Shown here: one piece after another, positions 7,276 to 35,868 of the stretch
How positions within the stretch are numbered: the first letter of the stretch is position 1
How the letters are laid out: the number at the start of each line of letters is the position of its first letter
Origin: a virus
Taxonomy: Duplodnaviria; Caudoviricetes
Direction: 5' to 3' (one strand)
Length of the DNA stretch: 60,125 nucleotides
IMG/VR virus record: IMGVR_UViG_3300044626_000224
Span: 1-60,125 of that record
Program-made: the position numbers and the translations under genes
The notes under the pieces: model-generated
Seen by the model: the letters and a program-made list of their open reading frames with translations, nothing else
Database searches by the model: none
Told to the model about the DNA's origin: nothing

Positions 7276-7296
7276 TTATCGGAAACGATAATCCCT

Positions 7297-14400: not shown

Positions 14401-17400
14401 AGTCAGCGCATTAATGAATGGCCGCAATTATGTAACTTATAAAGATTTTGGCATGGAGGTAGGTGATGCCGTTGTTACTAATAATCCTTGGATGGAAATA
14501 ATAGGAAGAGCCAAAATAGTTAAGGATAAATCTAATAACATATTTGTAAAAGACACTTACGATTTTAATCTAAGTCAAAAAGATGCATTCATATCACCAA
14601 CTTCAGTAATTGCAGAATCAGTAAGTAATCCAAGAGTTGCTGCAATATGGCTTGCTGCGCGAGTAGTCCCGCAAACGACTGAGGGTAAAACTGGAGTTCC
14701 TGTAAAAATAAAAATTTCTGGTCTGAAAGAACGAATGACAGAATCTTATTTTGAAAAGGCAGCTAATATTACACCTATCGAAGCGAAGGCAGGCGTAACT
14801 CCAGAAGGTGAACCAATGTCCAAGAGAGGGCAGAGCGTCATGCAGAAGATCACAACAAGAATGATCTCTGACTTGGAAGCTCAAGCAGAAATGCTTCGGC
14901 CAAAAGATAACAAGGCATACACCGAGTATCAGTCCCGCGCTGCACAGAAAGATAAGAAGTGGAATAAGGCATTACTTTCTCCGTTCTCAATCGCCGCGAA
15001 TCTATTCACATCGAACTCATTCACGGCAGCAAACAATGCCTTGGATAAGATTTTCAGAAACAATCCAGACGCTGACTTCTTTAGTGTTGCTCAGAACTTA
15101 GCAGGAATGGATGAGGCTACCGCACAGAGAGCATATAACATTTCTCCATACGAAAGATTGGTATTGATGGAGATGATGTATGAACTCTCTTCTGTTTACA
15201 GAAAAGAAGTGATGGACTCCAACATGAAGGCGACTGCCCGTGAATCTTTTGCTTTGGAATCCATAAATGTAGAGGCGGGATTGGCTCGTAACATTGCTCT
15301 TACTTTGCGTGAGAGTGGAAGAATGGTTCAAGCCGCCGCTGCCCTTCGCAAACTTGTCGGCGCAGGCATGGCTATCGATACCTACAAGAAGAACATCATT
15401 GCTTCGATGGGTAATCTGTCAGCAGTTACAAGATCATCATTCAATGAAGTAGCTAATGCCGTCCGAGGTGATCGGCGCAAGTCGATGGATAAGGTTTTCA
15501 ATACTAAAGAAGTATTTAGAAAAGCAGCATCCTTGATCAAGATGGCGCAGAGGAATCCAGAGAAGGTTCGTCAATCAATCCGCGCAGAGGTTTCTAAAAA
15601 GCAAACCGACTCAACCCGCCAGATTCTATTAGACTTTGCGGCGGGACTCTTCGATACCAAAGAAGACAAGTATGCCAACATGGTAGTAGACCAAACTGTT
15701 CAGAACATTCTCTCGATTGGAATGAACAAGAAGGAATTCTCCATCGATAATGTAACCAAGTTCATGTATCAGTCCTTCGCCGCTGCCGCAAAGCAGATGG
15801 GCATCCAACAAGCTGGGATTGAAAAGCAGAAGGCAGGCAAGCGCAGTGGCAAATACTTGGAGATGGTGAAGGCAGTTATCGGAAACGATAATGCTTACAA
15901 GTCCTTCTTGAACGATTTGGCAAACCGGATGGCAGAGAAGTATCAGAGCAGAGATGCATTCAACGCCGACTTCGCGGAACTCTTCAAGGCACTCCGATCA
16001 AACGAATGGGCAGACAAGTTAAGGACGCAGGCAATCAAAGACTCAGCAGACTTCTTGAACTACAAGTTCAATGATCTATTCACCTACCTTGGATCGAAGA
16101 GAGATGTAACACAAGAAGCAGTCAAGCAACACATCCGCACAGAGCTTCAAGGAACTGGCGCATCGAATGAACTGATCGAGAAGTTCATCCAAGACACAGA
16201 CAAGTATCTGAACGATGAAACGAGCAGAATTCTGCAAGATAAACTTGGATTCCGAATCGATGAGAAGACTGGCAAGGTAATGCCAAAGCCTCTCATGTCG
16301 GCTAAGATTCAAGAGGAGGCTGAAGCTCAGTTCAAAGCAATCAAGAACCTCAAAGACATCTCAAAGTTATCGACGAGCGATGAGGGTAACTTCAAACAAA
16401 ACTTGATCAGCAGGATCATCACTGAGGTTGGAATGGATGAGCAAAATGCTACTGAGTTGGCTACCTTAATCTCCGCTCAAATGGAGAAGGCAATGCTGGC
16501 GCAGAGGAGCGAGAATGTAGACAAGGCTATCAAGAAAGCTCAAGAGATATTATTAAACAATAAAGTTAAATCAACCGCCAATCAACGCACTATCCTCCAA
16601 AAACTAATTGAGATGGCAAACATGGGCGTATTGGATTCAGAGATGGTCTACGAAGCATTCAGACAAACCCATGACTTCCCTAAAGGTTTCATGCCATACG
16701 ATGCTGAGTTTGCAAATACCATCCGCGAGTGGGGTGATAGGATTTCCAAACTTCCAGCAGGAGTGATCCGTAGCATCGAAGAGGATAAGATGGGTCGAGC
16801 GTTGTTAGGTCGGTCTAAGTTCACTACTGGCGATGTTCTCTCAAGCTATTGGTATTTTGCACTGATCTCACAGGCATCAACTTCTGTGATTAACGCTTTA
16901 TCTGGTTCAAGTAACTTGATTGCCAACGTAGCTACATGGTCATTATACAATCCTAAATCATTCTTCCCAATGATGAAGGCGATGTATTCTGCTATTTCTG
17001 GGAAGCAGTCAGCGGCAGTCAATTCATTCCTGTATGTCATGCGTAACGGATTAAACCCATCTGGTATGCAGGATGAGAAGAGGGCTAAGTATCCTAAGAC
17101 GAATGTGCTTGAGGGTGCTACCCCAGAGAACACTCCCAAGATTGTTTATTACCTTACCAACTTCGGTGACGGGAAGATTAACTTCCTCCCCGATTGGATG
17201 AACACAGCATTGAAGAATGTTAACCCAAGGCAGTTGATGCGACTGATGAGGGCAACTGATATGTTCTTAAGGGAAGTTGCATACGAAGCGAAAGCAGCAC
17301 AACTTGGTGCAGCGGATTTTACAAGGGAAGGGTTTGACATGGCAAAGCGTCAAGCTGAGTTGGAGTTGGCATCATCGCAGGCTACTGGCAAACAGAAGGA

Positions 17401-18724
17401 GCAGGAGGTCATAATCCGCGCAAATGAAATCTATCGTGAGCAGAGATTGAAGGATGAGGAGAGACGAGCTATTGCGGAGCAGGCATCACTCGAAACTGCA
17501 TTCAACCAAGACCCGCAAGGCTTATTCGGCATGATGGCAAACTTTGTTAATGCACTTCTTGCCAAGTATCCAGCCACCAAATTCGTAATCCCATTCACAA
17601 ATGTTGTGGCTAACGTAACGAATGAGTTCCTTAACTACACATTCCCAGTTGCAATGTGGCGCGTGTATCAATCCAAAAAGAATGGATTGAAAGATCCGTT
17701 TACCCAAGGTCGAGCAGATAAAGAACATGAGATAGCAATTAAGGGCGTGATTGGTTTTGCTGCTTTGGTTGTTCCTTTCATTATCCAAGCACTCACAAGT
17801 GGAGATGAAGAGGATCAAGAGAAGCGTCCATATGTTCAGTTCTATGCTGAAGGGCCAAAAGACCCGCGACAAAAGAAAATCTGGCAGCAACGGGGAGGTC
17901 AGAAGTATTCAGTAAGAGTTGGTGATACATACTACTCATACCTATACACTCCACTTGTTATACCATTGGCTATGTCTGCGATGTTGCAGGAAGAAGTGAA
18001 GTCAATGAAGAAGAAGGGCGAAAAACTTCAAGCCGAAGACATGGGGAAACTTGCAGCAAGCGTTCTGACTGCACCATTCTCTGTTGGATTCGTTGCTGTC
18101 CTCAACCAATCATTCCTTACTGGTCTTGCTGACTTGCTGGAGTTCAAGGAATCTCAAGACCCAGTTCAAAAAGGAACGCAATTTGTAGGAGGAATCATAT
18201 CCCGTATGTTGGTTCCGGGTGCATTCCGCGACATCAACAAACTCTACACAGAAGACAAAGCAGTGGGTGGAGATTACCTTTCAAACTTCTTCAAGGATAT
18301 GCCCGGATCAGTGAACTTCTTGAACAAGGATGTGAACTACTTTGGTGATGATGCCAAGTTCCCATCTGCTGTGCAAGAGTCTGGATTCGGAAGACGCTTG
18401 GCAAGTGTTGTTGGCCGTATCGTTTCTACTGAGCAACCAGACCCAGCATGGGATGTTTTGTATAGAAACAACCTTACACCTCCAGCTTGGGATTCAAGCC
18501 TGTCATGGGATAATGGGAAGAAGATGACCAAGGAGCAGGAGTTGCAGTTTATCAGAGAGGCTGGGCCAATGATGCGTGATGCTATCATTGACATACAAAG
18601 TGATCTTGATGAGCTACCACTTGATGAAGCTCAAGACCTACTCAGCACAGAGATTCGTATCATCCGTAGAGAGGTGAAGGAAGACCTGCAAGATAGGTTG
18701 GAAATCCCTCTTGACATTGAGTGA
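11441..18724 (+). CDS. Large internal virion / DNA-ejection protein (2427 aa, polyvalent-protein-like)
   Basis: Size; Gly/Ala-rich membrane-like N-terminal part; C-terminal helical region with IPFT.V..N and YS.RVGD.YYSY motifs; last gene before a terminator. Confidence 0.65.
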   Translation: MTFSFDELKSLRKEGFTDDQIASVLSSNDKSIGDVFKEGYTLDQITSVISGQPIPEPEPIEERGIVRAAGDVGVAFLQGGVGAFRSLTDIFGADNPASTALRGVEEDVGNLLSAQAKEDKNEVSRILTEAQDKGIYDQLVAGVEAFATAPVLTTAGAAGSIAVNLLGGITANAASLGIRGVALGAKGLMASQAAVGAAQGAGTIKGQIYDATESYLLEQGMSPEIAKQGASEAQSYGGKNLDSILLGTGLGAANALTGVEKIAGNVILKQGGIPTKSAVRRFITGTAGEMAPEAVQAGQAEAAQNLALQREGADVPTMRGVASAAALEGLAGGALGGPTSLFFNRPRGETPQVAEEREIDSTSDQVADELDKEPTSPATEMAMRRMQSQTQIDNLKTEIEEDELTLQSIEQTSPDRQRAELALSGKKTALANLVSEFNTIPKEELSETIIKEEQPVAAPATPTATKESALAKIEELNKEFDALDENDQVGINRVNEAIAVEQNKLAELTAIEQGVEPQGTTPTREMGLPPSGRRSEFGTFFPDRPVLQAFVKATDKVLGAIQATGKRAQKLKNAIRTGIAANAGFLAGTNTEVISSEEYAKLTGGKQVAADTGTYRATFLNGKKYLVVPDVNVLQQLATQGEQRAASRDAALDQESRAAAKKLEEEMIHLSMFQGIQDEYKALKKPKLTEQEYIVKRISDIAQEVKRTNPNALPGVSEVYLNEKNKNLDDLTFSQEFMRMVIQRVRTGQITEDLNAIRAAEKEAFSDKDKGLIAAWKNSILNALKFARNSIARYLGKGTSTKEVKKMEDAINNILDEYGIVKGEANYEFKDYSAAQPKGGVKAEPTEVTPTTEESLPVEAVSETITPAIEAKAGGRSMLAALAIAGLPISAPIQQSNIKGSEKLENIQGYEKYKVGGKEYYRIDTSVNPELEKATTLAAEIGASLYTKLDNSPQAKIYKRVVLERNGTTITEKDFTADELAQLQDAVVSALMNGRNYVTYKDFGMEVGDAVVTNNPWMEIIGRAKIVKDKSNNIFVKDTYDFNLSQKDAFISPTSVIAESVSNPRVAAIWLAARVVPQTTEGKTGVPVKIKISGLKERMTESYFEKAANITPIEAKAGVTPEGEPMSKRGQSVMQKITTRMISDLEAQAEMLRPKDNKAYTEYQSRAAQKDKKWNKALLSPFSIAANLFTSNSFTAANNALDKIFRNNPDADFFSVAQNLAGMDEATAQRAYNISPYERLVLMEMMYELSSVYRKEVMDSNMKATARESFALESINVEAGLARNIALTLRESGRMVQAAAALRKLVGAGMAIDTYKKNIIASMGNLSAVTRSSFNEVANAVRGDRRKSMDKVFNTKEVFRKAASLIKMAQRNPEKVRQSIRAEVSKKQTDSTRQILLDFAAGLFDTKEDKYANMVVDQTVQNILSIGMNKKEFSIDNVTKFMYQSFAAAAKQMGIQQAGIEKQKAGKRSGKYLEMVKAVIGNDNAYKSFLNDLANRMAEKYQSRDAFNADFAELFKALRSNEWADKLRTQAIKDSADFLNYKFNDLFTYLGSKRDVTQEAVKQHIRTELQGTGASNELIEKFIQDTDKYLNDETSRILQDKLGFRIDEKTGKVMPKPLMSAKIQEEAEAQFKAIKNLKDISKLSTSDEGNFKQNLISRIITEVGMDEQNATELATLISAQMEKAMLAQRSENVDKAIKKAQEILLNNKVKSTANQRTILQKLIEMANMGVLDSEMVYEAFRQTHDFPKGFMPYDAEFANTIREWGDRISKLPAGVIRSIEEDKMGRALLGRSKFTTGDVLSSYWYFALISQASTSVINALSGSSNLIANVATWSLYNPKSFFPMMKAMYSAISGKQSAAVNSFLYVMRNGLNPSGMQDEKRAKYPKTNVLEGATPENTPKIVYYLTNFGDGKINFLPDWMNTALKNVNPRQLMRLMRATDMFLREVAYEAKAAQLGAADFTREGFDMAKRQAELELASSQATGKQKEQEVIIRANEIYREQRLKDEERRAIAEQASLETAFNQDPQGLFGMMANFVNALLAKYPATKFVIPFTNVVANVTNEFLNYTFPVAMWRVYQSKKNGLKDPFTQGRADKEHEIAIKGVIGFAALVVPFIIQALTSGDEEDQEKRPYVQFYAEGPKDPRQKKIWQQRGGQKYSVRVGDTYYSYLYTPLVIPLAMSAMLQEEVKSMKKKGEKLQAEDMGKLAASVLTAPFSVGFVAVLNQSFLTGLADLLEFKESQDPVQKGTQFVGGIISRMLVPGAFRDINKLYTEDKAVGGDYLSNFFKDMPGSVNFLNKDVNYFGDDAKFPSAVQESGFGRRLASVVGRIVSTEQPDPAWDVLYRNNLTPPAWDSSLSWDNGKKMTKEQELQFIREAGPMMRDAIIDIQSDLDELPLDEAQDLLSTEIRIIRREVKEDLQDRLEIPLDIE

Positions 18725-22931: not shown

Positions 22932-23213
22932 ATGTCAGAACCAACACAACAAAACGAAACCTCGAAAGCGGTGATGGAAGCATTTACTTTCATCAAGTCC
23001 GGCGACGAGACACTAAACGAACGAGTCCACGCAATGGCAAGCCTGTTGCATACAGCAGCAATGATGGTAGTCCGATCCGAATCCCGTAAAGGTGAAGGGT
23101 TTGAAGCTATCCGCTATTTGGAAACGGCATTCCTTTACTACAAAGAAAGCCAATTCCGCAAGCGATTCGATACTGAAGAGGAGAAAGAAGAGCCTTCTCG
23201 GATTATCAGCTAA
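22932..23213 (+). CDS. Hypothetical protein
   Basis: 93-aa ORF ending just before a palindrome and terminator. Confidence 0.6.
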   Translation: MSEPTQQNETSKAVMEAFTFIKSGDETLNERVHAMASLLHTAAMMVVRSESRKGEGFEAIRYLETAFLYYKESQFRKRFDTEEEKEEPSRIIS

Positions 23214-23235
23214 AGTATCGTAACCGATAAAAACA

Positions 23236-23281
23236 AAAAAGCCCACCTTGGATTTCTCCTCGGTGGGCTTCTTGCTTTTTA
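23236..23281. terminator. Bidirectional terminator between convergent operons
   Basis: AAAAAGCCCACC...GGTGGGCTT stem with A-run on one side and T-runs on the other. Confidence 0.75.
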
Positions 23282-24913
23282 GGCAGTCACTTCTTTCGGT
23301 GCTACTGATATCGTTCCATCTACCTCACCATCCATGAGGGTATCCATGCGCTTGAGTTTAGCGTCAAGCGAACTGCATACTGACTCTTCGATGTCTACAC
23401 CAGCGGCGTAGATGAGATACTGAATCGACTTGGACTTACCACCAGCGCGATGGACTCGACCAAGAACCTGCTTGAGATCAAAGACCGAGTAGGTTGGCAT
23501 GATGAGAGCAACACGGGAGTATTTGCCGTTGAGATCGTGAAGGTTCAGACCCTCTCGACAGGCTTGGATAATGCCGATTATAACTCTCGACTTGTCATTC
23601 TGGAATGAGTCGATGTTGCCTCTTCGGACAATATCACTCTGACCTCCGCGAATGGAGCAGGTAGTCTTGAGTTCTTCTTCCATAAACTTGAGAGTCTCGG
23701 TGAAGTTGACCGCAATGAAGACACTATTACCTTCTTCGATCAAATCCTTTACCATTGCACAGACTGCTGGTGCTTTGAAGAGTTCGATCTTCTGACGGGC
23801 ACGGGTCATCTCAGCGAGGACTGCACCCATCGAGGATGCGACATTCTCCTGCATTTTGATCTGCTCTACCCTCATAAGAAGGTCATCGTATTCTTTGGCA
23901 ATTTCACGGGCAGTATCCATGTCAAATGCTCTGGCTTGGATGAGTGTCTCTGGGAAGGCACTGCCAACATCAGATGGTTTGAGTCGATTACCTCGATCTG
24001 GAAAGATACGGCCATGAAGGTTCTTGAGAACTTTATTGTTACCCTTGAACTGCATACCGAACTGAGTGTTGTAGCATCCGTTGGCGTTGAGGAATCGGAA
24101 GAAGTCCCTACCACCTTGATGAAGACCAAGGAACTGCCCGATTGCCCACATCTTTGTAGGATCATCAGCTATCGTAGCCGATAATGCTATGGTGGGGATG
24201 TTCTGGACTACAGCATCGCGGAGCAGGAAGGCATTCTGTGTGTTACCTTGAGCCTTGGCGCGGTGAACCTCATCGAAGATAAGATCGGTATCTGACGGCA
24301 GCATGAATTGGAATTCCTTCTTCTTATCATCTGTCCACCTACCAATCTTACTCTTGCCGGTCTTGACCCACTCCCACCCACAGACCTCGTAGGTTTCAAC
24401 GCCAAGGTATTTGGCAAGCCTATGCCAGTCGGTGGTGATGGGTTTAGGGCAGATCACAGCAACGCGCCTGCCACGCTCACGGGCCACAGCAAGGGCGATA
24501 GCAGTCTTACCCATGCCAGTGCCATGCCCAAGCAATGCACGATTGTATTTAGACATGGAACGAAGTGCCAACTGAACTGAAGTAAGTTGATACTCAAATA
24601 ACTTTTCGGGATACAAGAGTGGAGGAAGGTCATACTTAACCTCCGGTTCTACCTTCTCTGGTGAGGAGGAAGGGATTGTCGGAAACGATAAATCGGCGCG
24701 TGACCACCAAGCAATCTCCCATTCATCTCTGAACTTGGAAAGCTGAAGACCTAAGTCTCCCATAGCTTGTTTGTAGTCATCTTTATCTTCTCGGTATAAA
24801 GCCCAGAACTCCGAGGTGACGCTCGCCTTCCGAAGAAGACGAGGGCCACGCTTGGTGGAAGTGGACATAGGTTGAGAGAACTCAAGAGTATCGAGTAATG
24901 CTTTTAGGTTCAT
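23279..24913 (-). CDS. Superfamily 2 (SNF2/DEAH-like) helicase
   Basis: GTGMGKT Walker A, IFDEVHRAK, LSAT, EGLNL, QVLGRVHRAG. Confidence 0.9.
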   Translation of the reverse strand: MNLKALLDTLEFSQPMSTSTKRGPRLLRKASVTSEFWALYREDKDDYKQAMGDLGLQLSKFRDEWEIAWWSRADLSFPTIPSSSPEKVEPEVKYDLPPLLYPEKLFEYQLTSVQLALRSMSKYNRALLGHGTGMGKTAIALAVARERGRRVAVICPKPITTDWHRLAKYLGVETYEVCGWEWVKTGKSKIGRWTDDKKKEFQFMLPSDTDLIFDEVHRAKAQGNTQNAFLLRDAVVQNIPTIALSATIADDPTKMWAIGQFLGLHQGGRDFFRFLNANGCYNTQFGMQFKGNNKVLKNLHGRIFPDRGNRLKPSDVGSAFPETLIQARAFDMDTAREIAKEYDDLLMRVEQIKMQENVASSMGAVLAEMTRARQKIELFKAPAVCAMVKDLIEEGNSVFIAVNFTETLKFMEEELKTTCSIRGGQSDIVRRGNIDSFQNDKSRVIIGIIQACREGLNLHDLNGKYSRVALIMPTYSVFDLKQVLGRVHRAGGKSKSIQYLIYAAGVDIEESVCSSLDAKLKRMDTLMDGEVDGTISVAPKEVTA

Positions 24914-24921
24914 TATGCTTT

Positions 24922-25223
24922 TTATTCTACTTTTCCAATAGCCTTTAGTGCATGAGCGAGAATATCTGCCCGTGTATCATTTGGACTAACTACCATCGCG
25001 GCGATGTCCTGCAATGCAGTCAATAGTAGTTTCTCACGGGCAGTCATGCCGCGCTTGCGTGTATGTTTTTTCCAGTTGGTATTCATTTTGATTTTTTAGT
25101 AGGTTGAGGTTTTGGATAGACCGAAGAACGAAACTTCGGCACATTGTTATCGCAGTGGCGAATGATGCGGATGTATGCCTCCGGTGGAAGGCAGGTTGGT
25201 TGGTTTTTCTCTGTTGCACTCAT
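24922..25223 (-). CDS. Two small coupled ORFs (25083-25223, 46 aa; 24922-25086, 54 aa), not in ORF track
   Basis: Hand translation; ATGA overlaps chain them to 25220-25456. Confidence 0.5.
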
Positions 25224-25456
25224 TGGTTATATTTGTTGCTGATGTGTTGGATGAGTTGATCAAGCACAGACTGCTTGTTACCTTTGAATCCAAAGTCTTT
25301 CTTAACTTTAGCATAGACTGATCCTTTGCTGTGCTTCATGCCAGCGACTTCTAACTTGAGTGCTGACTTTAGTCGAAGAAGAGCATAAAGCTCAAACTCT
25401 TGTGGTTCGATTATAGTATACATAGGTTTCTGTTTGTATAGGTTATGTGTTCTCAT
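25220..25456 (-). CDS. Small early phage protein
   Basis: LKSALKLEVAGMK..KGSVYA.VKK.FGFKGNKQSVL; ATG directly after hairpin element (the longer track ORF runs through non-coding structure). Confidence 0.65.
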   Translation of the reverse strand: MRTHNLYKQKPMYTIIEPQEFELYALLRLKSALKLEVAGMKHSKGSVYAKVKKDFGFKGNKQSVLDQLIQHISNKYNQ

Positions 25457-25529
25457 TGGGTTTTTCCAGTAGCACCATGCTACCAGACTGCTCCCCACTA
25501 TCGTGAACGATAATGAGGAGAGTGTCTGG

Positions 25530-25748
25530 TTACTTCCAAATCGGGCCGAGGGACTCCAAGTATCTATACATTGGAGTGAACATAGGGATAAGACGCGACT
25601 GACCATCGCGGCGAATCCACTCGCACCCATGCATTTTACCATTGCTCCAATACCAAGCGGAACATCTACCAGTAAAATTGGGAGATGTGATCTTGTGAAG
25701 AGCAAAGCCTTGCTTGCCTTCGTTGAATAATACTTTTTGTATGTTCAT
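25530..25748 (-). CDS. Small early protein
   Basis: Stop codon abuts hairpin element; ATGA overlap with upstream gene. Confidence 0.55.
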   Translation of the reverse strand: MNIQKVLFNEGKQGFALHKITSPNFTGRCSAWYWSNGKMHGCEWIRRDGQSRLIPMFTPMYRYLESLGPIWK

Positions 25749-26164
25749 GGGCAGGCGTGGTTGTAGCAATCTTCTGGTGAGTTGAATGGGCCTTGAGACA
25801 TAGCCATGTCATCATAGTAATACCAACCCGGATGTTCGATGCCTGTCACTTGGAAAGGATCAACATTCTTGATGGCATCTTTGATGTTGTCGATGAACTC
25901 TTGAGCTTCTGGGAGCCAGCAATTATCATCATACTCAATCCAATTACCATCGCGGATCATGTGATCTTGATAGTTATTAACCTCCTCGCGGAAGGCAGTA
26001 TAGTCATATTCTTTGAGGACATCGCCAGCTGACATATGAGTGAATGGGCCGCCTACCTTGTAGAAGTCATATCTTTCATTGAGCATCTCGATAGTAGCTT
26101 CTTCGACATCTATGTATTCATGTTCATCATAGACTCTTTCTTCTAAGTATTGTTCTCTTGTCAT
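25745..26164 (-). CDS. Acidic early protein
   Basis: 139 aa, Asp/Glu/Tyr-rich; VLKEYD.TAFRE motif. Confidence 0.65.
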   Translation of the reverse strand: MTREQYLEERVYDEHEYIDVEEATIEMLNERYDFYKVGGPFTHMSAGDVLKEYDYTAFREEVNNYQDHMIRDGNWIEYDDNCWLPEAQEFIDNIKDAIKNVDPFQVTGIEHPGWYYYDDMAMSQGPFNSPEDCYNHACP

Positions 26165-26258
26165 GTTATTGTATTTGGTTATTGTTTCGTGTTTTTCTAC
26201 TTACACCATGTAAGCAGACTGCTGGCATTATCGTTTCCGATAACACCAGAGTGTCTGA

Positions 26259-26488
26259 CTACGCCCAATACTTGCCGTCACATACGCGAATGACTTGTTT
26301 GTCTTTCTTTGTTATGATGGTGACAGGTTGTTTCTTGGGAGTGGTGGCGCGGACAACGCCGATTTGTTTGATGGGGATAGCATCGAATAGCTTTCGAGCC
26401 TTTACCTTAGTTATTTCGAGCATAGGATGAGAGTAGCTACTACTACTTGGAAGAGCATGATGAGTATGAGAAGGTTTCTTACACTCAT
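26259..26488 (-). CDS. Two small ORFs: 26411-26488 (25-aa hydrophobic peptide) and 26259-26423 (54-aa basic protein)
   Basis: Hand translation; first overlaps upstream stop (ATGA), second ends at a hairpin element. Confidence 0.45.
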
Positions 26489-27162
26489 GCTAAAGCCTCC
26501 ACAGCTTTACGCACTTGGTATCCATGAGGATTGATCCAGACAGATGGGAGAGATGAGCGGCGATAGTTGCCGTCACACAATCCACACTCTGAACAAGACA
26601 ATCCCTTGGCATCTGCGAGACATTCGATATCGTTAACGATAGGCTCGTTACTGACAGTGAATGTCCGAAGACCAAGGTTCTTAGCATACTCCACATTGCT
26701 GGAATTGGTAGATGCCATGAAGTATCTACCATATGATTTTGCAAGTGGCGCAGGCATAGAATGCCAATCATGGAAGTATCCTGTAATCCGCTTGGCGAGC
26801 TTGGCAATGTCATATACCATTTCCAAAGGAATGTGGGATGGATTACCATATGCGCCAAAGCGGACATAGGGGACAGAGAAGAAGTCATACCACTCGCGTG
26901 TCCCCATCTGAAGGTATTCATAGGAGCCGCGCTGATATGCTCGCCAGATAGCACCGAGAGGATTGTCAGAGACATAACAACCTTGCTTGGAAGCAAACTC
27001 GCATCCATTGCATTGGTTGTCTGCATCTGGGCCTTTCCTAGATTCGGTAGGATGCATACGAGCATCCATAATCCATATCTGGACAGACTTGCCTGTCTTT
27101 CTGTTGCTACTATTCCTTGTGGCGATTACCACAATATCGTTGGTTTCATGTATAATATACAT
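26485..27162 (-). CDS. Cys-rich Gp88-like phage protein (possible Fe-S / radical-SAM-related fold)
   Basis: S.N.KTG, C..C......GCY, VRFGAYG.P, GY.H.W, C...GL.C..CGLC, I.PHG; ATG at 27162 after hairpin element. Confidence 0.55.
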   Translation of the reverse strand: MYIIHETNDIVVIATRNSSNRKTGKSVQIWIMDARMHPTESRKGPDADNQCNGCEFASKQGCYVSDNPLGAIWRAYQRGSYEYLQMGTREWYDFFSVPYVRFGAYGNPSHIPLEMVYDIAKLAKRITGYFHDWHSMPAPLAKSYGRYFMASTNSSNVEYAKNLGLRTFTVSNEPIVNDIECLADAKGLSCSECGLCDGNYRRSSLPSVWINPHGYQVRKAVEALA

Positions 27163-27236
27163 TTGGTTTCGTGTTTTCCGACATGGTTGTATGTCAGACT
27201 GCCGCTCCCCGTTATCGTAAACGAGAAGCGGAGTGT

Positions 27237-27398
27237 CTAACTGCAAGCGTAAAAAGGGTGATATTCGCTTGCGATTGGGCGAGTCTTTAGGAAAGACGCT
27301 TTGAGTTTGCGTAAAACTCGCATTGCTTTTTCTTCCTTTTCTGGAGTATATTCCCAAATCTTTGATCGAATTCGACGGAGTTGTTTTTCGTAGTTCAT
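27237..27398 (-). CDS. Small basic early protein (53 aa), not in ORF track
   Basis: Lies exactly between two hairpin elements; stop TAG is inside the P1 stem. Confidence 0.6.
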   Translation of the reverse strand: MNYEKQLRRIRSKIWEYTPEKEEKAMRVLRKLKASFLKTRPIASEYHPFYACS

Positions 27399-27483
27399 AA
27401 TTCTTTATTTGTTTCGTGTTTTCGCTGATTGGTTGTAATCAGCCTGCTGCCCTAATATCGTAAACGATACCAGAGCAGAGTGG

Positions 27484-27627
27484 CTAACTACGCAGGTAGC
27501 GCAGGGCGTCGATGTAGGAACGAACCCGCTTTCTGAAGTAAGGTAGATGGCGCAACCGCCAGCATTCCTTGATGGATTTTAAGGTAGCAACATGGAGTGT
27601 TACCTTGATGTCGTATGGAATAGTCAT
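27484..27627 (-). CDS. Small early protein (47 aa), paralogue of 22089-22259
   Basis: ATGA overlap; W..R...YFRKRVRSYIDALR; stop inside P1 stem. Confidence 0.6.
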   Translation of the reverse strand: MTIPYDIKVTLHVATLKSIKECWRLRHLPYFRKRVRSYIDALRYLRS

Positions 27628-27863
27628 TCGATGATAAGAAGCCCCATTGTTAAGAGTTCCTCCATGCCATACACCTTGCGTTCACCGCAGCACTCACAAA
27701 GATACTTGCGAGCGTCTGGCTCAACACCATCTACTTCCTCACCGCAGGTTAAGCACCATCCGGGAGAGTCCATGCCGAACATGATTTGCTCCATCTCTTC
27801 GGTGGAAACGACAGGAACGATATACTCGTTACCTTTATCGGATACGATAGTCTTCGTAGTCAT
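27624..27863 (-). CDS. Zn-ribbon protein
   Basis: GWCLTCG...VEPDARKYLCECCG. Confidence 0.7.
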   Translation of the reverse strand: MTTKTIVSDKGNEYIVPVVSTEEMEQIMFGMDSPGWCLTCGEEVDGVEPDARKYLCECCGERKVYGMEELLTMGLLIIE

Positions 27864-28099
27864 TAGAAGCCCTCCGGTTTGAATCCTTCCTCACCGCGAA
27901 GAAAGCCCTTGGAGAACGCTGTAATGCAAGCGTCAAGGACAGCGGCGGGAACATGACCATAGGTCATAACATGGGAACCATTGTGCATAACGGAATAGCC
28001 CTTGCCATTTCCAGATGCTTGGCATGAGAGTTCAAAATGAACTCCAGTGACATTAAACAGGTAATCCAACCTGTCGCGTAATAATTTTCGTGTTATCAT
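27863..28099 (-). CDS. First early gene, hypothetical
   Basis: ATG at 28099 after ACACGAAACAA leader. Confidence 0.6.
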   Translation of the reverse strand: MITRKLLRDRLDYLFNVTGVHFELSCQASGNGKGYSVMHNGSHVMTYGHVPAAVLDACITAFSKGFLRGEEGFKPEGF

Positions 28100-28298
28100 T
28101 TGTTTCGTGTGTTGTGACTCTGCGTTTGCGTTATGCTTTACGGGATTGTCACCGCTTTGAATTATCGGATACGATAACCAAATCCGCATTAACCTCGCCG
28201 TCCATAACAGACGACAAGGCCACGAAAAACCGAAACTGAAAACCTGAAATTGAAATGATCGATTGTCGTGGGAAAACTACTCTTCCCCGACTTTCAAT

Positions 28299-28327
28299 AG
28301 TCTACCACAAGTCACCCCTTTTGTCAA
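28299..28327 (-). promoter_or_regulatory. Strong sigma70-type early promoter
   Basis: TTGACA-17 nt-TAGACT with TG extension on minus strand. Confidence 0.7.
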
Positions 28328-28404
28328 TAGTTTGATGTAATTATTTTACATTTAGTCAAAATATTTTTATTGAATTATCGTGTCAGATAAAATACATTCC
28401 CGCC

Positions 28405-29004
28405 ATGAAAGCAAAGAAGCAAGTCGATGCGCGGAAGAAGTGGGACATGGATAAAGTGCGAGCGTTATACATCCAAGGGATAGAGATCGCCGACATCGTA
28501 AAGATGCCAGAATTCAATGGACTCTCACGCTTCTATGTGAAGAATGTAATGATCAAGGGCAAGTGGTCACAGCAAAGACAGCTCATCCGAACGCAATCTA
28601 CTGGATTGATAGAGAAGACGATAGTAGATGCAATGAAGGATCAAACGGAGGATCACCTGCGTTTTATGCTGAAACAGATCAGCGAGGAAAGAGCCGAGAT
28701 AGTTGCCAGAAAAAAGATGGGCAACATAAAAGACCAGCGGGAACGCTTGGAAGTGTTATCAGAATTAGATAAAACCGCGAGAAGGACGCTTGGCTTGGAT
28801 GAACAAAACATTGCAGATAAACGAGCAATGAGCGTGAACGCAATGATCAGCCTCCATATCAGACCACCAAGCAAAGCGGAAGAGGTGGAAGTAATATCCG
28901 GGCAATATGTGGAAGGGGAAAGGGGGGAACAGAACGAGGTGGAAGAGGCTATCGTTTACGATAACGAAGGGGAAGTGGAAGAAGGGGAAGAGCAAGTAGT
29001 CTGA
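28405..29004 (+). CDS. terS: Putative terminase small subunit
   Basis: N-terminal HTH-like WDMDKVRALYIQG.....I...KGKW..QR, central coiled coil, RRTLGLD, acidic tail. Confidence 0.55.
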   Translation: MKAKKQVDARKKWDMDKVRALYIQGIEIADIVKMPEFNGLSRFYVKNVMIKGKWSQQRQLIRTQSTGLIEKTIVDAMKDQTEDHLRFMLKQISEERAEIVARKKMGNIKDQRERLEVLSELDKTARRTLGLDEQNIADKRAMSVNAMISLHIRPPSKAEEVEVISGQYVEGERGEQNEVEEAIVYDNEGEVEEGEEQVV

Positions 29005-29035
29005 GCCTATCAAATCGCAGATTATTTTTGGGCAC

Positions 29036-29073
29036 AAAAAAGGGTGACACCCGAAGATGTCACCCGATTTTTT
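29036..29073. terminator. Bidirectional terminator
   Basis: AAAAAA-GGGTGACA...TGTCACCC-GATTTTTT between convergent genes. Confidence 0.75.
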
Positions 29074-29153
29074 ATAGTAGTCTAAAGACTACGAAGGCGG
29101 CCATGACGGCCAATAGTAGAACCTTTAGTAGAACCTTTTCTTGTATACTCATG

Positions 29154-29915
29154 TTACTTTTTAGCTTTGAGGGTCTGAACGGCGGCAGCTGCGTCGGCAT
29201 GCATAAGAAGGTATCCGCCTAAGTTGAGCTTGGCAATCACTTGCCTTGCAATCTTCAAACGAGCCTCACCCTCTGCAATCTTCGAATATTTATCGGTATA
29301 CGATAAAAGCAGAGTCTCGAGCTTGTCGGCTTCATCCGCGAAGTTTACTGCTTTCGGTTCACTGGTTTCTTCCTGCTTTGCTGGTTTTTCTTTTGGCTGG
29401 ATTGACTCTTTCACCGCACGAGGGGATTTCCCCTCATTAAGTAATGCGACTGCTTGCTGACTGGTTTCCTCGCCCTTTAATAGCTTGGAAACCTCGCGCA
29501 GCGCATAGAGGTCTTTTACCTTGTCAATCGAAAGGCCTTTATCCTCAAATGAGGGGAGAGCTTTTGAGATACTGATAAGGTTTGGAATAGTAGAACCACT
29601 CCAGCGCAATTTGAGCTGATCAGCGTATGCCTTGCTTTGCTCCTCTGGTTTGTTTTTAAACACCCATGCGGAGAATAGGATTGCGTCTCTGATAGCAGAT
29701 TGACCAGCGTCAAGTTTGGTGACAACATAACCGACCGCGTCATCTACTGATATGTCCGCTGCTTTGCTGCTTTCCAAATATCCAAGAGAGTTTCTTTTAA
29801 ACATTTGATCGATTGCGATTGGCTCGCGCACTACGCTAAGGTTTACTGCTTTCGCTTTGTCGAGTTTCGCGTGAATATCTGCTTTGACTGCTTTTGTATT
29901 TGTAGCTGTTTTCAT
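29154..29915 (-). CDS. Lys/Ala-rich helical hypothetical protein with its own promoter
   Basis: ATG at 29915; single gene between promoter 30088-30116 and terminator. Confidence 0.7.
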   Translation of the reverse strand: MKTATNTKAVKADIHAKLDKAKAVNLSVVREPIAIDQMFKRNSLGYLESSKAADISVDDAVGYVVTKLDAGQSAIRDAILFSAWVFKNKPEEQSKAYADQLKLRWSGSTIPNLISISKALPSFEDKGLSIDKVKDLYALREVSKLLKGEETSQQAVALLNEGKSPRAVKESIQPKEKPAKQEETSEPKAVNFADEADKLETLLLSYTDKYSKIAEGEARLKIARQVIAKLNLGGYLLMHADAAAAVQTLKAKK

Positions 29916-31025: not shown

Positions 31026-31538
31026 TCATAGTCCGAGTATCTTTGCCCCGTTTGGGTAGGTTCCGCGATAGATTTCCGTCTGTGCTTTCCTTACCACAAA
31101 TACAGATGGTTTTCCGCTGTGATCCCAGTAGGAGGTTAGTGGTTCTTTCTTAAATTGGACTACTGTGACTCCCATTTTTTCTGCTATCTCTAAGGCTATT
31201 GGGTCGGATTTGTAGATTTCTTTGTAGAGGACTCTCTTTATCTTATAGGCGGCTATGGTCTTTAGGCAGTCTCTACATGGGAGTAGGGTGGATACCAGTG
31301 TCTTTCCTTCGCCCGGACTTGTATATCTCAAGGCATTCTGCTCTGCGTGGATTACGAACTTTGATCTTTCTTCTCTTGATGACCAATCTTCTTCTACACC
31401 TTGAGGGAATCCATTATACCCTACTGAGGCTATGGAGTTGTCTTCTCTTAAGATCACCGCGCCGACCTTATGCCACGGGTCTTTACTTTTCTTAGCCACT
31501 ACCTCGGCTATGCTCATTGCGTATTCATCCCAGTTCAT
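31026..31538 (-). CDS. dCMP deaminase
   Basis: SKDP..KVGAVI, GYNGFP.G, HAEQNAL, PC..C zinc motif. Confidence 0.9.
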   Translation of the reverse strand: MNWDEYAMSIAEVVAKKSKDPWHKVGAVILREDNSIASVGYNGFPQGVEEDWSSREERSKFVIHAEQNALRYTSPGEGKTLVSTLLPCRDCLKTIAAYKIKRVLYKEIYKSDPIALEIAEKMGVTVVQFKKEPLTSYWDHSGKPSVFVVRKAQTEIYRGTYPNGAKILGL

Positions 31539-32521: not shown

Positions 32522-33516
32522 TTATAAATTAACTTCCATTTATCTAATGTTTCACTCTTGATCATTGTTGAATACTTTGTAAAATCGTGTTTATTACAAT
32601 TTTTTAGTGCTTTAATTATGTTTGGTATTTCTTCAATTGAATCAAAATAATACCTACACTTTTCAAGTTTTGGATTATACCATTCAGACAATTTAGCGAG
32701 GTCTTCTGTAAGTATTTCTGCCCCTCCATATCCCGTTATATTGAACAAATAATTTCCTTGTTTGCTTAACTTCATCAATAACTCTACTGATGGAAGTAAT
32801 ACTGGAATGTTGTTGTGTATTGCTTCAAATGAAAACCATTTGCAAAATGTATCTGGTAAGGTGACGAACGCTGAATACTTATTCAACTGACTTGGAGAGT
32901 AAAAAGTTCCATTGCAAACAGACAGATCATTTGATCTTAAATAATCTGCCATTTTAAAAAACTGATTATCGTTGTGATAAAATGGAACAAATACATCAGC
33001 ATCAAGTAATTCTTTTGACTCTCCATACATCTCATTAAATACATTTGCCCTTGGTATGTTAAAATCTAAATCATGTTTGCCGAGTGGATTAATTACGGGA
33101 TTGAACATGATATTAGAGCCATGCTGCAAACACCATAACTTCTCAAATAAAGTTGAAGCGACAATTGTTATTTTAGGATTATTCGTAGCATTACGGAATA
33201 ATTCGTAATACTCAATATCTCCAGACATTCCATAATCAAAACGATTACATATCCATATGATTAATTTTGGTTTTAACTTTTCTATGTTTTGTAGAAATGG
33301 TCTGGATAATGGTGCTGTATCAGAAATAAGAATATAATCATACGAGTTAAATAGTTCTTCATTCTTATTCCAAAAATCATCAGCTATTTCTTTTGTAATC
33401 CTAAATACATTGTCAGTGAATTTGTGATTATCAACATGGAGTCCAAGTTTATTGAGTATATATTGCTGATCTCTAAAACATCCAATATGATGAGAGATGT
33501 GTAATACTTTCTTCAT
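32518..33516 (-). CDS. Putative glycosyltransferase
   Basis: KKVLHISHH N-terminus; FEAIH..IPVLLPS; flanked by glycosyltransferases. Confidence 0.5.
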   Translation of the reverse strand: MKKVLHISHHIGCFRDQQYILNKLGLHVDNHKFTDNVFRITKEIADDFWNKNEELFNSYDYILISDTAPLSRPFLQNIEKLKPKLIIWICNRFDYGMSGDIEYYELFRNATNNPKITIVASTLFEKLWCLQHGSNIMFNPVINPLGKHDLDFNIPRANVFNEMYGESKELLDADVFVPFYHNDNQFFKMADYLRSNDLSVCNGTFYSPSQLNKYSAFVTLPDTFCKWFSFEAIHNNIPVLLPSVELLMKLSKQGNYLFNITGYGGAEILTEDLAKLSEWYNPKLEKCRYYFDSIEEIPNIIKALKNCNKHDFTKYSTMIKSETLDKWKLIYK

Positions 33517-34640
33517 GGATAGTATCTGTTCATTGCTTCGATGTCGTTTCCTTTGGCATACCACCCGTCTCCGGTATATACATCCATGACATCTGCGAAG
33601 TATTTCTCATACATTGGTGCTACCCGCTCCAAGGTGAAGTTTTTTCCAAATCTGTGGCAGTCGTATGGGCAGATTTGGTCGATGTTCTTAATCGCATCTA
33701 TGTAGTCACCCATAGTCCGGCAGCGGAATCCTGTATAACCATGTAGGTTATTCTCGGTGAACGATCCCCAGTCGGTAGTAATTGTCGGAGTGCCAGAGAG
33801 TAGGTTTTCTATTTGGACTCCACCGAATGGTTCTACATACTGACTTGGAAGGAAGGATGCTTTAGCCCTCGACATGAGCTTCTTTCTGGTAGGAACATCG
33901 GCGTATCCTACATAGGTAACATGGTCTGGTAGTTTGTAACCTTCCTCTTTTTGGCCTGCGATTACCAGTTTAACCCCTGCTCGTTTAGTAGCTTCAATGG
34001 CAATATCTACACCTTTTCCGCTATATACCCTACCCAGATAGAGAAAGTAATCTTCTTTCTGGTCACAGAAGTCGAAGTCTTCTTTATCAAAGTAGTTTGG
34101 GATTACTACGGCATAGTTATCTTGCTGGCAATTTCCTACTGCCTGCATTCCGCAGAACGCATGGTAGATTGCGTAGGATTCAAATACTTTCCACCTCGCC
34201 CAGTGTCCACCTGCATATCCAATCCCCGGCTCGACTGTGATTAAGTCTGGATGAGCGTCACAAATAGGACGAACGCCACTTCCCCAGAATGGGAGAATGA
34301 AGTCATTCTTCTGCTTACGCTGCCCGATTGCCTTAATCGCGTTTCGATAGAATGTTTGGTAGGCATGGTCATTGGTATCAAACTTGAAGAATGTCTTCCT
34401 CCAGTCATGTGATCCGTAGCTTTTGTTGAAGTCATCATTGGTTAGGACAGGGACGTGTTCTGTGCAGATTAAGTCTGAATCTTCGTGTCCGTAGTGGATT
34501 ACTTCATGGCCGCGCTGGGTCATCATCTTCCCGAACTTCACTACCTTTTGGGTATAAGCGCAGGCGTTGAACTCTTTGGAACTTACTGTGTGAGGCAAGC
34601 CAAGGATATGGAATCTAAATTTATCGTTAACGATACTCAT
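33513..34640 (-). CDS. GT4-family glycosyltransferase
   Basis: YLGRV...KG..IAI, EPFGGVQIE..LSGTP.ITTD.G. Confidence 0.85.
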   Translation of the reverse strand: MSIVNDKFRFHILGLPHTVSSKEFNACAYTQKVVKFGKMMTQRGHEVIHYGHEDSDLICTEHVPVLTNDDFNKSYGSHDWRKTFFKFDTNDHAYQTFYRNAIKAIGQRKQKNDFILPFWGSGVRPICDAHPDLITVEPGIGYAGGHWARWKVFESYAIYHAFCGMQAVGNCQQDNYAVVIPNYFDKEDFDFCDQKEDYFLYLGRVYSGKGVDIAIEATKRAGVKLVIAGQKEEGYKLPDHVTYVGYADVPTRKKLMSRAKASFLPSQYVEPFGGVQIENLLSGTPTITTDWGSFTENNLHGYTGFRCRTMGDYIDAIKNIDQICPYDCHRFGKNFTLERVAPMYEKYFADVMDVYTGDGWYAKGNDIEAMNRYYP

Positions 34641-35097: not shown

Positions 35098-35868
35098 TTC
35101 TTTTCTTGTCCAGTAAGCGTAAACCGCTTCATGCCGCGCTTCTTGAAGAAGTCTTCACAGGCTTTAGCAATTTGCTTGGAGTTGAGTGGATACTTCCATC
35201 CTACTCTGGCATCATTTTGGTCAACATTGCCCTCTGTATCTTTGCCGTTGATCTTCATTTCATTGACTTGCTGCCCTTGCACTTCCACTTCTTGCGCGAG
35301 AGATTATTCGGGGAGTTAGGATCGGATTTCCAATCGCCTTTAATTTTGGCTGAACGAGCGCAATACGCATCACCTTTGGCCGTGCCGGGGCGAATACGAT
35401 CACCGCCATCTTTAGCCTTGCCAGCTTGACCATACTTCACAGTCTTAGTCCTGCCAGTCTTAGCGTTCTTGACTACTTTCGTGAATCGCTTTTCCATTTT
35501 AATAGTCCCAAAAATAATCGTCAGAATAAGTTGTAATTTTCATTTTTTCTTTGCAGTTTTAGCTGATTGCTTGAACGCTTTGGCGGTAGGTGCGCCTTTG
35601 CTGCCAACCTTCCGCATCTTCTCACCACTACCAGCGGCGATGCGTTTTTTCTTTGCGTTAATATTTGAGTATAATCCAGTTTTCATTTCTTCTTAGCCAT
35701 TCCCGCACGCGATAATGCAATTGCAACTGCTTGTTTGCGGCTCTTGGCCATTGGTGCTTTCTTCGGGCCTTTAGGGTTGATACCAGCTTTCAGTTTGCCA
35801 GCTTTGTATTCACGCATTGTTTTTGCCACCTTCGCGGCCTTACCTGCTTTTGTTGTTGGTTTTTTCAT
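35094..35868 (-). CDS. Cluster of four small, mostly Lys-rich proteins (35094-35258, 35255-35497, 35540-35686, 35683-35868)
   Basis: Overlapping start/stop codons; KVAKTMREYKAGKL..KSRKQAVAIALS and GLY.NI.AK..RI..GSGEKMRK.GSKGAP patterns. Confidence 0.65.

Follow-up and report, generated by a model that had tools for sequence, protein, structure and literature searches.

A repeated, covarying intercistronic RNA element in the early operon of an uncultured lake phage

Introduction

The early mRNA of bacteriophage T7 carries the RNase III sites R0.3 to R1.3, which are asymmetric-loop hairpins located between the cistrons of the early transcript that the host polymerase makes as one polycistronic RNA; the upstream message would keep the hairpin as a cap at its 3' end. 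The REP elements of enterobacteria are repeated imperfect palindromes that lie in operons just after stop codons and can stabilize the upstream mRNA; found across the chromosome in either orientation, they are associated with RAYT transposases. The attC sites of integrons belong to same-orientation arrays of promoterless gene-plus-hairpin units behind one promoter, combine a conserved basal stem and an unpaired spacer with a variable stem and tip, fold in a strand-specific manner and have extrahelical bases in the L stem. In their paired R''/R' boxes, AAC faces GTT; the R' box is given as 5'-GTTRRRY-3' in PMC9892861, which also reports attC clusters without an integrase in virulent phages. For RNase III sites, PMC1540722 gives a total helix of about two turns and no conserved positive sequence determinants; coaxially stacked helices may provide this length, and an internal loop or bulge can restrict the cut to a single strand. 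The promoter-early stem-loops (PeSLs) of T4-type phages are described, in PMC2839356 and PMC4122927, as repeated intergenic motifs that reach from an upstream stop to a downstream start, are concentrated among small variable early genes, have G-T pairs in their stems and contain the borders of indels and replacements between relatives. A PeSL consists of a strong sigma-70 promoter and a stem-loop, and the latter has been shown to terminate transcription (PMC2839356).

Here we present an element that is repeated in the early operon of an uncultured lake phage. It resembles the T7 sites in its position and asymmetric loop and in the 3' cap proposed here, but with a basal helix of just 5 bp it would reach two turns only by the stacking of a second hairpin, its base and loop are conserved in sequence, and it starts at or inside a stop codon and marks cassette boundaries. 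All of the general PeSL features listed above apply to it, whereas the scan detected neither a promoter-like nor a terminator-like site inside it, and its conserved internal loop and second hairpin have no counterpart in the PeSLs as described in PMC2839356 and PMC4122927. It shares with REP elements the location after stop codons and, as proposed here, the stabilization of upstream mRNA, but is found in one orientation and only in the phage early operon, with no transposase family among 64 ORFs. The array, the stem layout and the strand-specific folding recall attC sites, although the better-folding strand is here the sense strand and the irregular pairs are G-U.

Organization of the early operon

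The window, i.e. the whole stretch of DNA that was analyzed, is a complete virus record of 60,125 bp. The features that delimit the early operon are as follows.

28299-28327, minus strand: sigma-70-like promoter (TTGACA, 17 nt, TAGACT; TG before the second hexamer)
23279-28099, minus strand: early operon, blocks of small genes that overlap or abut (TAATG and ATGA junctions)
23279-24913, minus strand: SNF2/DEAD-type helicase gene (544 aa), the last gene of the operon
23231-23268, minus strand: intrinsic-terminator-like hairpin GCCCACC...GGTGGGC with T run, after the helicase gene
23217-23228: solitary palindrome, following the terminator-like hairpin

The promoter at 28327-28299 is the only strong one of the operon and lies upstream of all four elements. 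The hairpin with T run at 23231-23268 was read from the sequence, being missing from the terminator scan (loop longer than 8 nt), and is probably the end of the operon. In a scan of positions 23000-29300, none of the four elements contained a site resembling a promoter or a terminator. Shine-Dalgarno motifs precede 6 of 59 starts (5 of 59 in the control), so that the genome is without them; the sequence upstream of starts is A-rich and G-poor.

The elements separate the gene blocks of the operon and occupy four of its five non-overlapping gene junctions.

Element A, 27396-27487, minus strand: hairpin 1 at 27487-27440 (UAGCC/GGCUG base, ACU/CA loop, 14-bp upper helix, apex palindrome UAUCG-UUUA-CGAUA); hairpin 2 at 27440-27427 (loop ACAACC); basal helix containing the stop TAG (27486-27484) that ends the upstream 47-aa gene; leader AAAACACGAAAC at 27422-27411; next ATG at 27398
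Element B, 27160-27240, minus strand: hairpin 1 at 27240-27195 (UAGAC/GUCUG base, ACU/CA loop, 12-bp upper helix, 6-nt loop; palindrome copy with one mismatch, out of register); hairpin 2 at 27195-27180; stop TAG at 27239-27237, inside the basal helix; leader at 27177-27166; next ATG at 27162
Element C, 26162-26258, minus strand: hairpin 1 at 26258-26215 (CAGAC/GUCUG base, ACU/CA loop, 12-bp upper helix, apex UAUCG-GAAA-CGAUA); hairpin 2 at 26215-26199 (loop UGG); upstream stop TAG at 26261-26259; leader at 26195-26184; next ATG at 26164
Element D, 25421-25529, minus strand: hairpin 1 at 25529-25484 (ACU/CA loop, 13-bp upper helix, apex UAUCG-UUCA-CGAUA; basal helix of 6 bp, CCAGAC/GUCUGG, if G 25483 is counted); hairpin 2 at 25484-25468 (loop UGG); upstream stop TAA at 25532-25530; A-rich leader up to an in-frame ATG at 25456 or 25423

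In each copy, the asymmetric internal loop ACU/CA separates a basal helix of 5 bp from an upper helix of 12-14 bp; hairpin 2 has the final G of the basal helix as its first nucleotide, adjoins hairpin 1 and is followed by an A/C-rich leader rather than by a T run. The upstream stop codon lies within the basal helix in A and B (TAG) and just upstream of it in C (1 nt) and D; in the window as in relatives, hairpin 1 either contains the stop or lies within 0-2 nt of it. The leader to the next start codon is unstructured, A/C-rich and without a Shine-Dalgarno motif, and the sequence AAAACACGAAAC recurs exactly in three of the four copies. Exactly four copies are present, all on the minus (sense) strand. 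The pattern CACTC-N20-40-GCAGKCTG likewise matched four times and only on that strand (0.06 matches expected from shuffled sequences; none of 100 shuffles reached four). The window spans the complete virus record, so this phage has no further copies. These results agree with the original prediction, which had described four minus-strand copies that start at or overlap the upstream stop codon, each followed by a second small hairpin (loop UGG or ACAACC) and an A-rich leader.

Structure and covariation

The covariance model of the element finds 55 copies, 41 of them distinct, in 17 loci. In the alignment of the distinct copies, 99.9% of the 697 pair cells are paired (99.8% in the upper helix, which has no conserved bulge), and compensatory changes occur at 16 of the 18 pairs; none of 500 shuffles reached the observed values, and in slid controls only 31-48% of the cells pair. 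RNAalifold recovered the same fold independently from a plain MAFFT alignment, with compensatory changes at 10 of 18 pairs. The claim that the stems differ while pairing is kept therefore extends from the window to a wider alignment.

All irregular pairs in the window are G-U on the sense strand, as had been predicted, and the family alignment contains 88 G-U cells, no A-C cell and one other irregular cell, which identifies the sense strand as the folding one. RNA folding z-scores were -4.5 to -6.7 for the sense strand (none of 200 shuffles folded as well) and -1.4 to -2.7 for the antisense strand, and the intergenic segments with elements had folding energies of -29 to -36 kcal/mol. The four window copies scored 42-72 bits on the sense strand, whereas antisense matches scored at most 27 bits. 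Both strands are also able to fold as single-stranded DNA; stability is much greater as RNA.

The basal helix is conserved in sequence (mostly YAGAC/GUCUG) and measures 5 bp in 47 of 48 distinct element contexts; the 41 distinct copies contain CAGAC/GTCTG (22), TAGAC/GTCTG (11), TAGCC/GGCTG (4) and four singletons. In contrast, the upper helix covaries freely and has 10-18 bp in nearly all copies (mean 13.0 +/- 1.6 bp). The asymmetric loop is present in all 41 distinct copies, usually as 3x2 and sometimes as 2x1, with the consensus A-C-N opposite N-A, in which the first 5' A and the last 3' A are invariant (41/41). The ACU/CA loop, which had been called invariant, is so in the window (4/4) but not in the family, where 29 of the 41 distinct copies have it. 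Hairpin 2 was found in 32 of 34 distinct downstream segments, with loops of several kinds. By inspection, almost every segment continues after hairpin 2 with the dinucleotide RG, which is able to pair with the CU of GUCUG. Two mutually exclusive pairings are possible for the 3' CUG, and the leader is unpaired in both.

As a structured RNA motif the element is well supported, and Rfam does not contain it. A search of Rfam 15 yielded no match at gathering scores in the whole window and none at E-values up to 5 in positions 25380-27520, in line with the predicted novelty, and literature searches revealed no earlier description of the motif.

The apical palindrome was found to be a separate motif that is spread genome-wide. 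Among 53 copies of the element counted, it lies at the apex in 43 and serves as hairpin 2 in four, whereas six have no exact copy. It is dispensable to the element, because copies in unrelated phages are entirely without it; the proposed fusion of RNA motif and palindrome thus describes the usual apex but not an integral part of the element.

Distribution and cassette exchange

Several lineages of uncultured freshwater phages share the conserved base, including distantly related ones (terminase approximately 28% identical); basal helix and loop stay nearly invariant even at core-protein identities of only 20-50% and over a GC range from 42.5% to 54.5%. Some other phages carry single copies of the element. 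The wide pattern scan was unspecific: it returned at least 117 loci, and of the 100 scanned with model R1 six held true elements. The next 15 loci yielded none with model R2 (the last two were on contigs already covered). Model R2 also found nothing in 264 kb, including the loci L018, L019 and L022 and the whole G004 genome. In the element-free relatives L022 and L018, seven intergenic segments folded no better than shuffled sequences (z +1.6 to -1.5). As to cultured relatives, 50,697 phage records gave no DNA match for positions 23000-29200 and no match for the terminase protein.

According to a cassette map of 13 loci, the genes between the elements differ cassette-wise among relatives, and an extra gene block always comes with an extra element. 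A reassortment table showed that the type of hairpin 1 goes with the upstream gene and that junctions lie on either side of hairpin 2; taken with the map, this places the borders of indels and replacements in the element when related phages are compared. A homologue of the 72-aa gene is found together with its hairpin, as a unit, in a distantly related 69-kb phage. As a pattern, the elements mark the points at which small early genes are swapped between relatives, which bears out the earlier suggestion of a cassette junction.

Possible functions

The element is a composite intercistronic RNA structure within one long early mRNA. As a tentative reading of its sequence, to which we assign a probability of about 0.4, it may act as RNase III-type processing and stabilizing punctuation that doubles as a recombination junction. 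An RNase III-type, double-strand-specific endoribonuclease would bind the roughly two-turn helix of hairpin 2 stacked on hairpin 1, with the cut placed at the internal loop. The upstream message would then be closed by a protective 3' hairpin directly behind its stop codon, and the downstream message would start with hairpin 2, which would grow by 3 bp via the freed CUG into a protective 5' hairpin before the open, ribosome-loading leader; each gene block would obtain its own stabilized mRNA. Since every block has the same conserved ends, the elements may also act as crossover points for the gain, loss and exchange of cassettes. The loop is, in all 41 distinct copies, of a kind able to confine RNase III cleavage to one strand. 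Basal helix (5 bp) and upper helix (13.0 bp) add up to about 18 bp, or to 22.8 +/- 2.0 bp with hairpin 2 in an assumed coaxial stack (45 contexts); the two-turn length hinges on this stack, as the basal helix alone has only 5 bp. The lengths of the upper helix and hairpin 2 showed no significant compensation (Spearman -0.21, p 0.16). One metatranscriptome run contained contigs approximately 90% similar to parts of the early operon; their ends at 27430/27431 and 27160 are uninformative on RNA ends and expression because they coincide with repeats or branch points at which the DNA contigs stop as well.

The near-invariant base and loop, unlike RNase III sites, point to a sequence-specific partner instead. 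By analogy with lambda nut/N and the two-hairpin put RNA of HK022, the element might be an operator at which a phage or host RNA-binding factor recognizes the basal helix and the A-C/A loop and acts on translation or processive antitermination without cleavage. Such an operator, which we regard as rather unlikely, would fit a base and loop conserved in sequence below an upper helix free to vary, the same base in distantly related or unrelated phages and the two-hairpin layout, seen in 32 of the 34 distinct segments downstream; the mutually exclusive pairings of the 3' CUG could be switched by a ribosome that terminates at the neighbouring stop. However, Pfam found no RNA-binding or antiterminator family in the 64 ORFs, the 2427-aa ORF or 10 small early ORFs, PHROGs on 19 ORFs named no such function, and no protein of the window is common to all element-bearing genomes yet missing from element-free ones. 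Moreover, the leader is unpaired in both conformations, so there is no obvious occlusion of the start site, and antitermination sites normally occur once per operon, not once per gene block. It is very improbable that the element is an attenuator, pause site or U-tract-independent terminator that lowers transcript levels stepwise along the operon. The stable hairpins directly after coding regions would suit this role, and PeSL stem-loops terminate transcription (PMC2839356), but no copy is followed by a T run, whereas operon ends in the same genome carry canonical hairpin-plus-T-run terminators. The essential helicase gene follows all four copies and has no separate promoter, and intrinsic termination would leave the conserved internal loop without a role. 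RNA anti-CRISPRs are a precedent for decoys against host defence. The lower stem, asymmetric bulge, variable upper stem and adjoining hairpin could, by likeness, mimic a guide-RNA scaffold or CRISPR repeat, made early to sequester an effector. The location among hypervariable small early genes, the conserved base with its free upper stem and the spread among unrelated phages of similar habitats would be expected of a decoy; its tight coupling to stop codons and leaders would not be needed, and we consider the idea far-fetched.

Alternatively, the element might work mainly at the DNA level and delimit mobile early-gene cassettes as their recombination site, with the RNA structure incidental; it would be either a folded single strand for a recombinase, as in integron attC sites, or just a short conserved sequence acting as a homologous-recombination hotspot, as in PeSLs. 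The unidirectional array of gene-plus-hairpin units behind a single promoter, the extra element with each extra block, the linkage of hairpin 1 type to the upstream gene with junctions on either side of hairpin 2, the 72-aa gene homologue travelling with its hairpin, the conserved ends around a variable middle and the ability to fold as DNA are all consistent with this, as is the occurrence of integrase-less attC clusters in virulent phages (PMC9892861). On the other hand, the 64 ORFs, the further ORFs scanned and the 10 small early ORFs yielded no match to a recombinase family (integrase, transposase or other), AAC is paired with GTT in the basal helix of none of the 41 distinct copies, which have GAC/GUC or variants instead, and the 99.9% paired cells leave no extrahelical bases. 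The excess of G-U over A-C cells (88 vs 0) and the far greater stability as RNA agree with selection acting on the transcript, the strict placement at stop codons and before leaders fits a role in expression, and single copies in other phages have no partner in the same genome. A role mainly on DNA is judged distinctly improbable. In a bolder version, lytic phages would possess an integron-like cassette system with the hairpins as its recombination sites, the unit being an early gene with its 3' hairpin (conserved 5-bp base, unpaired A-C/A spacer, single-strand fold). A recombinase of phage or host would recognize the hairpin, so that early genes, probably for host takeover or anti-defence, could be captured, excised and passed between unrelated phages while one promoter expresses all cassettes; we hold this to be highly doubtful.

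Other candidates were rejected. An N4-like hairpin promoter for a phage RNA polymerase is contradicted by the 2427-aa ORF, which matched nothing in Pfam, PHROGs or the PDB and contains neither a DxDGD nor a DxDxD motif, by the absence of a polymerase family in the 64 ORFs and by the several kinds of hairpin 2 loops. As to programmed frameshifting or read-through, frames span elements B and D but are shifted in opposite directions (-1 and +1), and none is listed for A and C. The giant virion protein was dismissed as a partner specific to element-bearing genomes, different parts of it matching in different genomes.

Implications

The element offers a handle on the organization of long polycistronic early messages in phages of hosts without Shine-Dalgarno initiation, on what recognizes a small, invariant A-C/A internal loop and on the cassette exchange of hypervariable early genes. 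If the base is a recognition site for a protein or nuclease, it would represent a compact new RNA-protein module; if the element is a recombination site, it would represent a new cassette system in lytic phages.

Organization of the early operon

The window is a complete uncultured virus record (60,125 bp; CheckV 100%) whose DNA is also contained in lake-water metagenomes, and its terminase yielded no match in a search of 50,697 cultured-phage records. The features of the early run are as follows:

28327-28299, minus strand: sigma-70-like promoter (TTGACA-17 nt-TAGACT), heading a run of small early genes
27396-27487, minus strand: element A
27160-27240, minus strand: element B
26162-26258, minus strand: element C
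25421-25529, minus strand: element D
last gene of the early run, minus strand: 544-aa SNF2/DEAD helicase
near 23268-23231, minus strand: hairpin-plus-T-run terminator, probably closing the early run after the helicase

Junctions within the operon are mostly overlapping or abutting genes (TAATG, ATGA), and the element occupies four of the five non-overlapping ones. A scan of the early region revealed no promoter-like or terminator-like sites inside the elements; phage polymerase and recombinase families were not found among 64 ORFs of the window.

Exactly four matches to the pattern CACTC-N20-40-GCAGKCTG lie in the window, always on the minus strand (0.06 occurrences expected), and no further element copies were found elsewhere in this genome. 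Hairpin 1 of these copies comprises a basal helix of 5 bp (YAGAC/GUCUG; in one copy the compensatory variant UAGCC/GGCUG), an internal 3x2 loop with ACU facing CA, and an upper helix of 12-14 bp in which pairing is kept although the sequence varies from copy to copy. In A and B the basal helix contains the upstream gene's stop codon, which in C and D lies just upstream of the helix. Hairpin 2 starts at the final G of the basal helix and is followed by an A/C-rich single-stranded leader, with AAAACACGAAAC in three copies, that extends to the next ATG. RNA folding compared with shuffles gave z-scores of -4.5 to -6.7 for the sense strand, versus -1.4 to -2.7 for the antisense strand.

Shine-Dalgarno sequences are not used by this genome (6 of 59 starts, versus 5 of 59 in a control inside genes), and positions -14 to -3 of the starts are A-rich and G-poor throughout the window; such starts are typical of Bacteroidota hosts. 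In the early operon's untranslated leader, 28225-28245 (minus strand) contains GTTTCGGTTTTTCGTG, which nearly matches the reverse complement of AAAACACGAAAC and could therefore pair with the downstream leaders. Two hairpin-less relatives (viral loci L022:2634-5690 and L018:3065-5547) nevertheless carry AACACACATGAAAAC, an A/C-rich leader repeated at the starts of early genes, so the leader is older and more widespread than the hairpin.

Covariation and comparison with Rfam

Using the helicase protein, 14 related viral loci were gathered, and a simple regular expression recovered 38 copies (18 distinct hairpin sequences). Searching 17 sources with a covariance model made from eight gap-free copies identified 53 copies on the sense strand, spread over 13 of the sources (E below 2e-5); of the four that gave no match, three are more distantly related (helicase 64-66% identical) and one is a locus without the early region. 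The four sense-strand copies of the window scored 42-72 bits, and no antisense match exceeded 27 bits. Further lineages were obtained by two pattern scans of the viral collection and filtered with the covariance model.

In the resulting pooled alignment (55 copies, 41 distinct, 17 loci), which was fitted to the structure of the model, standard pairs accounted for 99.9% of 697 cells, 16 of the 18 pairs showed changes on both sides, and no observed measure was equalled by any of 500 shuffles; with the partners displaced by 1-3 columns, pairing fell to 31-48%. As a check independent of the model, RNAalifold applied to a plain MAFFT alignment of 20 copies returned the same 5 + 13 pairs (10 compensatory). 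The presence of 88 G-U cells and no A-C cells in the pooled alignment shows that the sense strand is the one that folds. The original prediction of a repeated covarying RNA element is borne out by these data, and its novelty relative to Rfam holds, as neither gathering scores nor an E cutoff of 5 produced a match in Rfam 15. The ACU/CA loop, originally described as invariant, is so in the four copies of the window but not in the family, where it is present in 29 of 41 distinct copies and only its first and last A are constant.

Distribution and cassette exchange

Each of three complete genomes has its copies in a single early-region cluster (3, 4 and 4 sense-strand copies). G003 and G004, near-complete relatives with replication and structural proteins 56-86% identical to those of the window, contain no copies, and no analogous hairpins were found in seven intergenic segments of element-free relatives. 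The far more distant phage genome G001 (53.5 kb, GC 54.5%), with core proteins of 25-52% identity and no early gene in common, carries three copies with the same base. G006 and G007 (about 68 kb), related to the window by terminase and portal at 20-28% identity, have one copy each; that of G006 sits after a 55% identical homologue of the 72-aa gene that precedes element D in the window.

Common to the window and G006, an otherwise distantly related 69-kb phage, are a dCMP deaminase (31026-31538, minus; 75%), a group-1 glycosyltransferase (33513-34640, minus; 81%) and two small proteins (25530-25748, minus, 55%; 35540-35686, minus, 85%), which points to recent gene exchange and perhaps to a modified-base pathway.

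ORF families and elements were mapped in 13 loci, in which conserved gene blocks are parted by elements and the intervening slots are variable. In the slot that follows the first element, five different contents are found (a single gene in four of them, two genes in the other); elsewhere this slot is empty, with two elements side by side, or is missing along with one element. Wherever a block is added (a 124-142-aa gene or a 182-183-aa gene), an extra element accompanies it. These arrangements agree with the alternative, also proposed originally, that the element is a cassette junction. The type of hairpin 1 tracks the upstream gene, and hairpin 2 tracks the upstream unit in some cases and the downstream unit in others, which places the junctions on either side of hairpin 2.

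Apical palindrome

The palindrome ATCG-N4-CGAT occurs 32 times in the window (0.66 expected), in coding and non-coding DNA and often 4-8 nt before late-gene start codons:

139-150, 2434-2445, 7278-7289, 43752-43763, 54619-54630, 56054-56065: examples of the palindrome

Its full form is TTATCG-N4-CGATAA, and some copies lie within long genes in differing reading frames. In sense orientation the central four bases are GAAA/TAAA 15 times versus TTTC/TTTA 3 times. The 14-bp form TATCG-N4-CGATA, conserved in number among distant relatives, has 31 copies in the window, 26 in G001 and 17 in each of G003 and G004; G006 and G007 have none.

Of the 53 element copies counted, 43 carry the palindrome at the tip of hairpin 1, 4 use it as hairpin 2 and 6 have no exact version of it; element copies of palindrome-free phages have apexes of the ordinary tetraloop type. 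The element core is therefore the conserved base plus loop, and the palindrome, originally regarded as fused with the element, is a separate module, either a family-specific passenger or an added function.

In element B (27213-27228, minus strand) a one-mismatch palindrome, TTCTCG-TTTA-CGATAA, lies 2 nt off the RNA hairpin axis, a hint that it may be recognised by its sequence (DNA?) and not through this RNA stem. At L011:4874-4893, L015:1231-1250 and L010:4483-4502 (viral loci) the palindrome is hairpin 2 (GUUAUCG-UUUC-CGAUAAU), and hairpin 1 has a G+C-rich upper helix and a GNRA-like loop without palindrome; the palindrome is thus kept within the element at a different position.

Other genes of the window

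A 199-aa gene without a Pfam family (28405-29004, plus strand) is divergent from the early promoter, with a degenerate palindrome (TTATCG-TGTC-AGATAA) directly upstream of its start. Its product, a candidate DNA-binding or packaging protein, is the sole early-region protein also present in G001 (37%) and in G003 and G004 (31%), the genomes in which the palindrome is also present. Collagen-repeat tail-fibre-like genes occur in two sets (158-1279 / 54638-56014; 2452-3414 / 56074-56718; all plus strand) that have nearly identical upstream regions, palindrome included, and first proteins 68% identical; they look like duplicated or alternative receptor-binding modules. An ORF of 2427 aa (11441-18724, plus strand), Gly- and Ala-rich in its N-terminal part, had no match in Pfam, PHROG or PDB. 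G001 and G007 conserve its C-terminal half, G006 conserves its N-terminal part, G004 matches over only 53 aa, and G003 gave no match.

Proposed function and relation to known systems

Tentatively, with a probability of roughly 0.4, the element is read as processing and stabilising punctuation, recombination at the repeated ends being a consequence. This reading is favoured by the length, the internal loop and a possible 5' hairpin after cleavage. If stacking is assumed, hairpin 2, basal helix and upper helix together measure 22.8 +/- 2.0 bp, close to the two helical turns that RNase III substrates typically have. An RNase III-type cut would free a CUG, and in almost all of 34 distinct downstream segments (by inspection) hairpin 2 is followed by RG, with which this CUG could pair to create a 5'-terminal hairpin ahead of the open leader. 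The T7 early RNase III sites would be closest to the element in manner of working. For RNase III substrates, passages of PMC1540722 describe that coaxial stacking can provide the two-turn length, that internal loops limit cleavage to one strand and that the product retains a protective 3' hairpin.

The main objection is that the base is conserved in sequence across distant phages, whereas RNase III needs no such conservation. This conservation fits a site for a sequence-specific binder, which is considered rather unlikely, and also a recombination site, considered less likely still; both strands are foldable as DNA, so a role in DNA is possible. The single RNA run contained only contigs, which break at repeats.

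In evolutionary behaviour the element resembles the PeSLs (promoter-early stem-loops) of T4-type phages, which (PMC2839356; PMC4122927) have a promoter and a terminator for which the scan found no counterpart in the element. The layout of the array resembles that of integron attC sites, clusters of which are reported in virulent phages (PMC9892861), but the element is without the AAC/GTT core and the extrahelical bases, and no integrase was found among 64 ORFs of the window. The element belongs to no Rfam family and is judged to be new, a structured intercistronic element found in early operons of phages.
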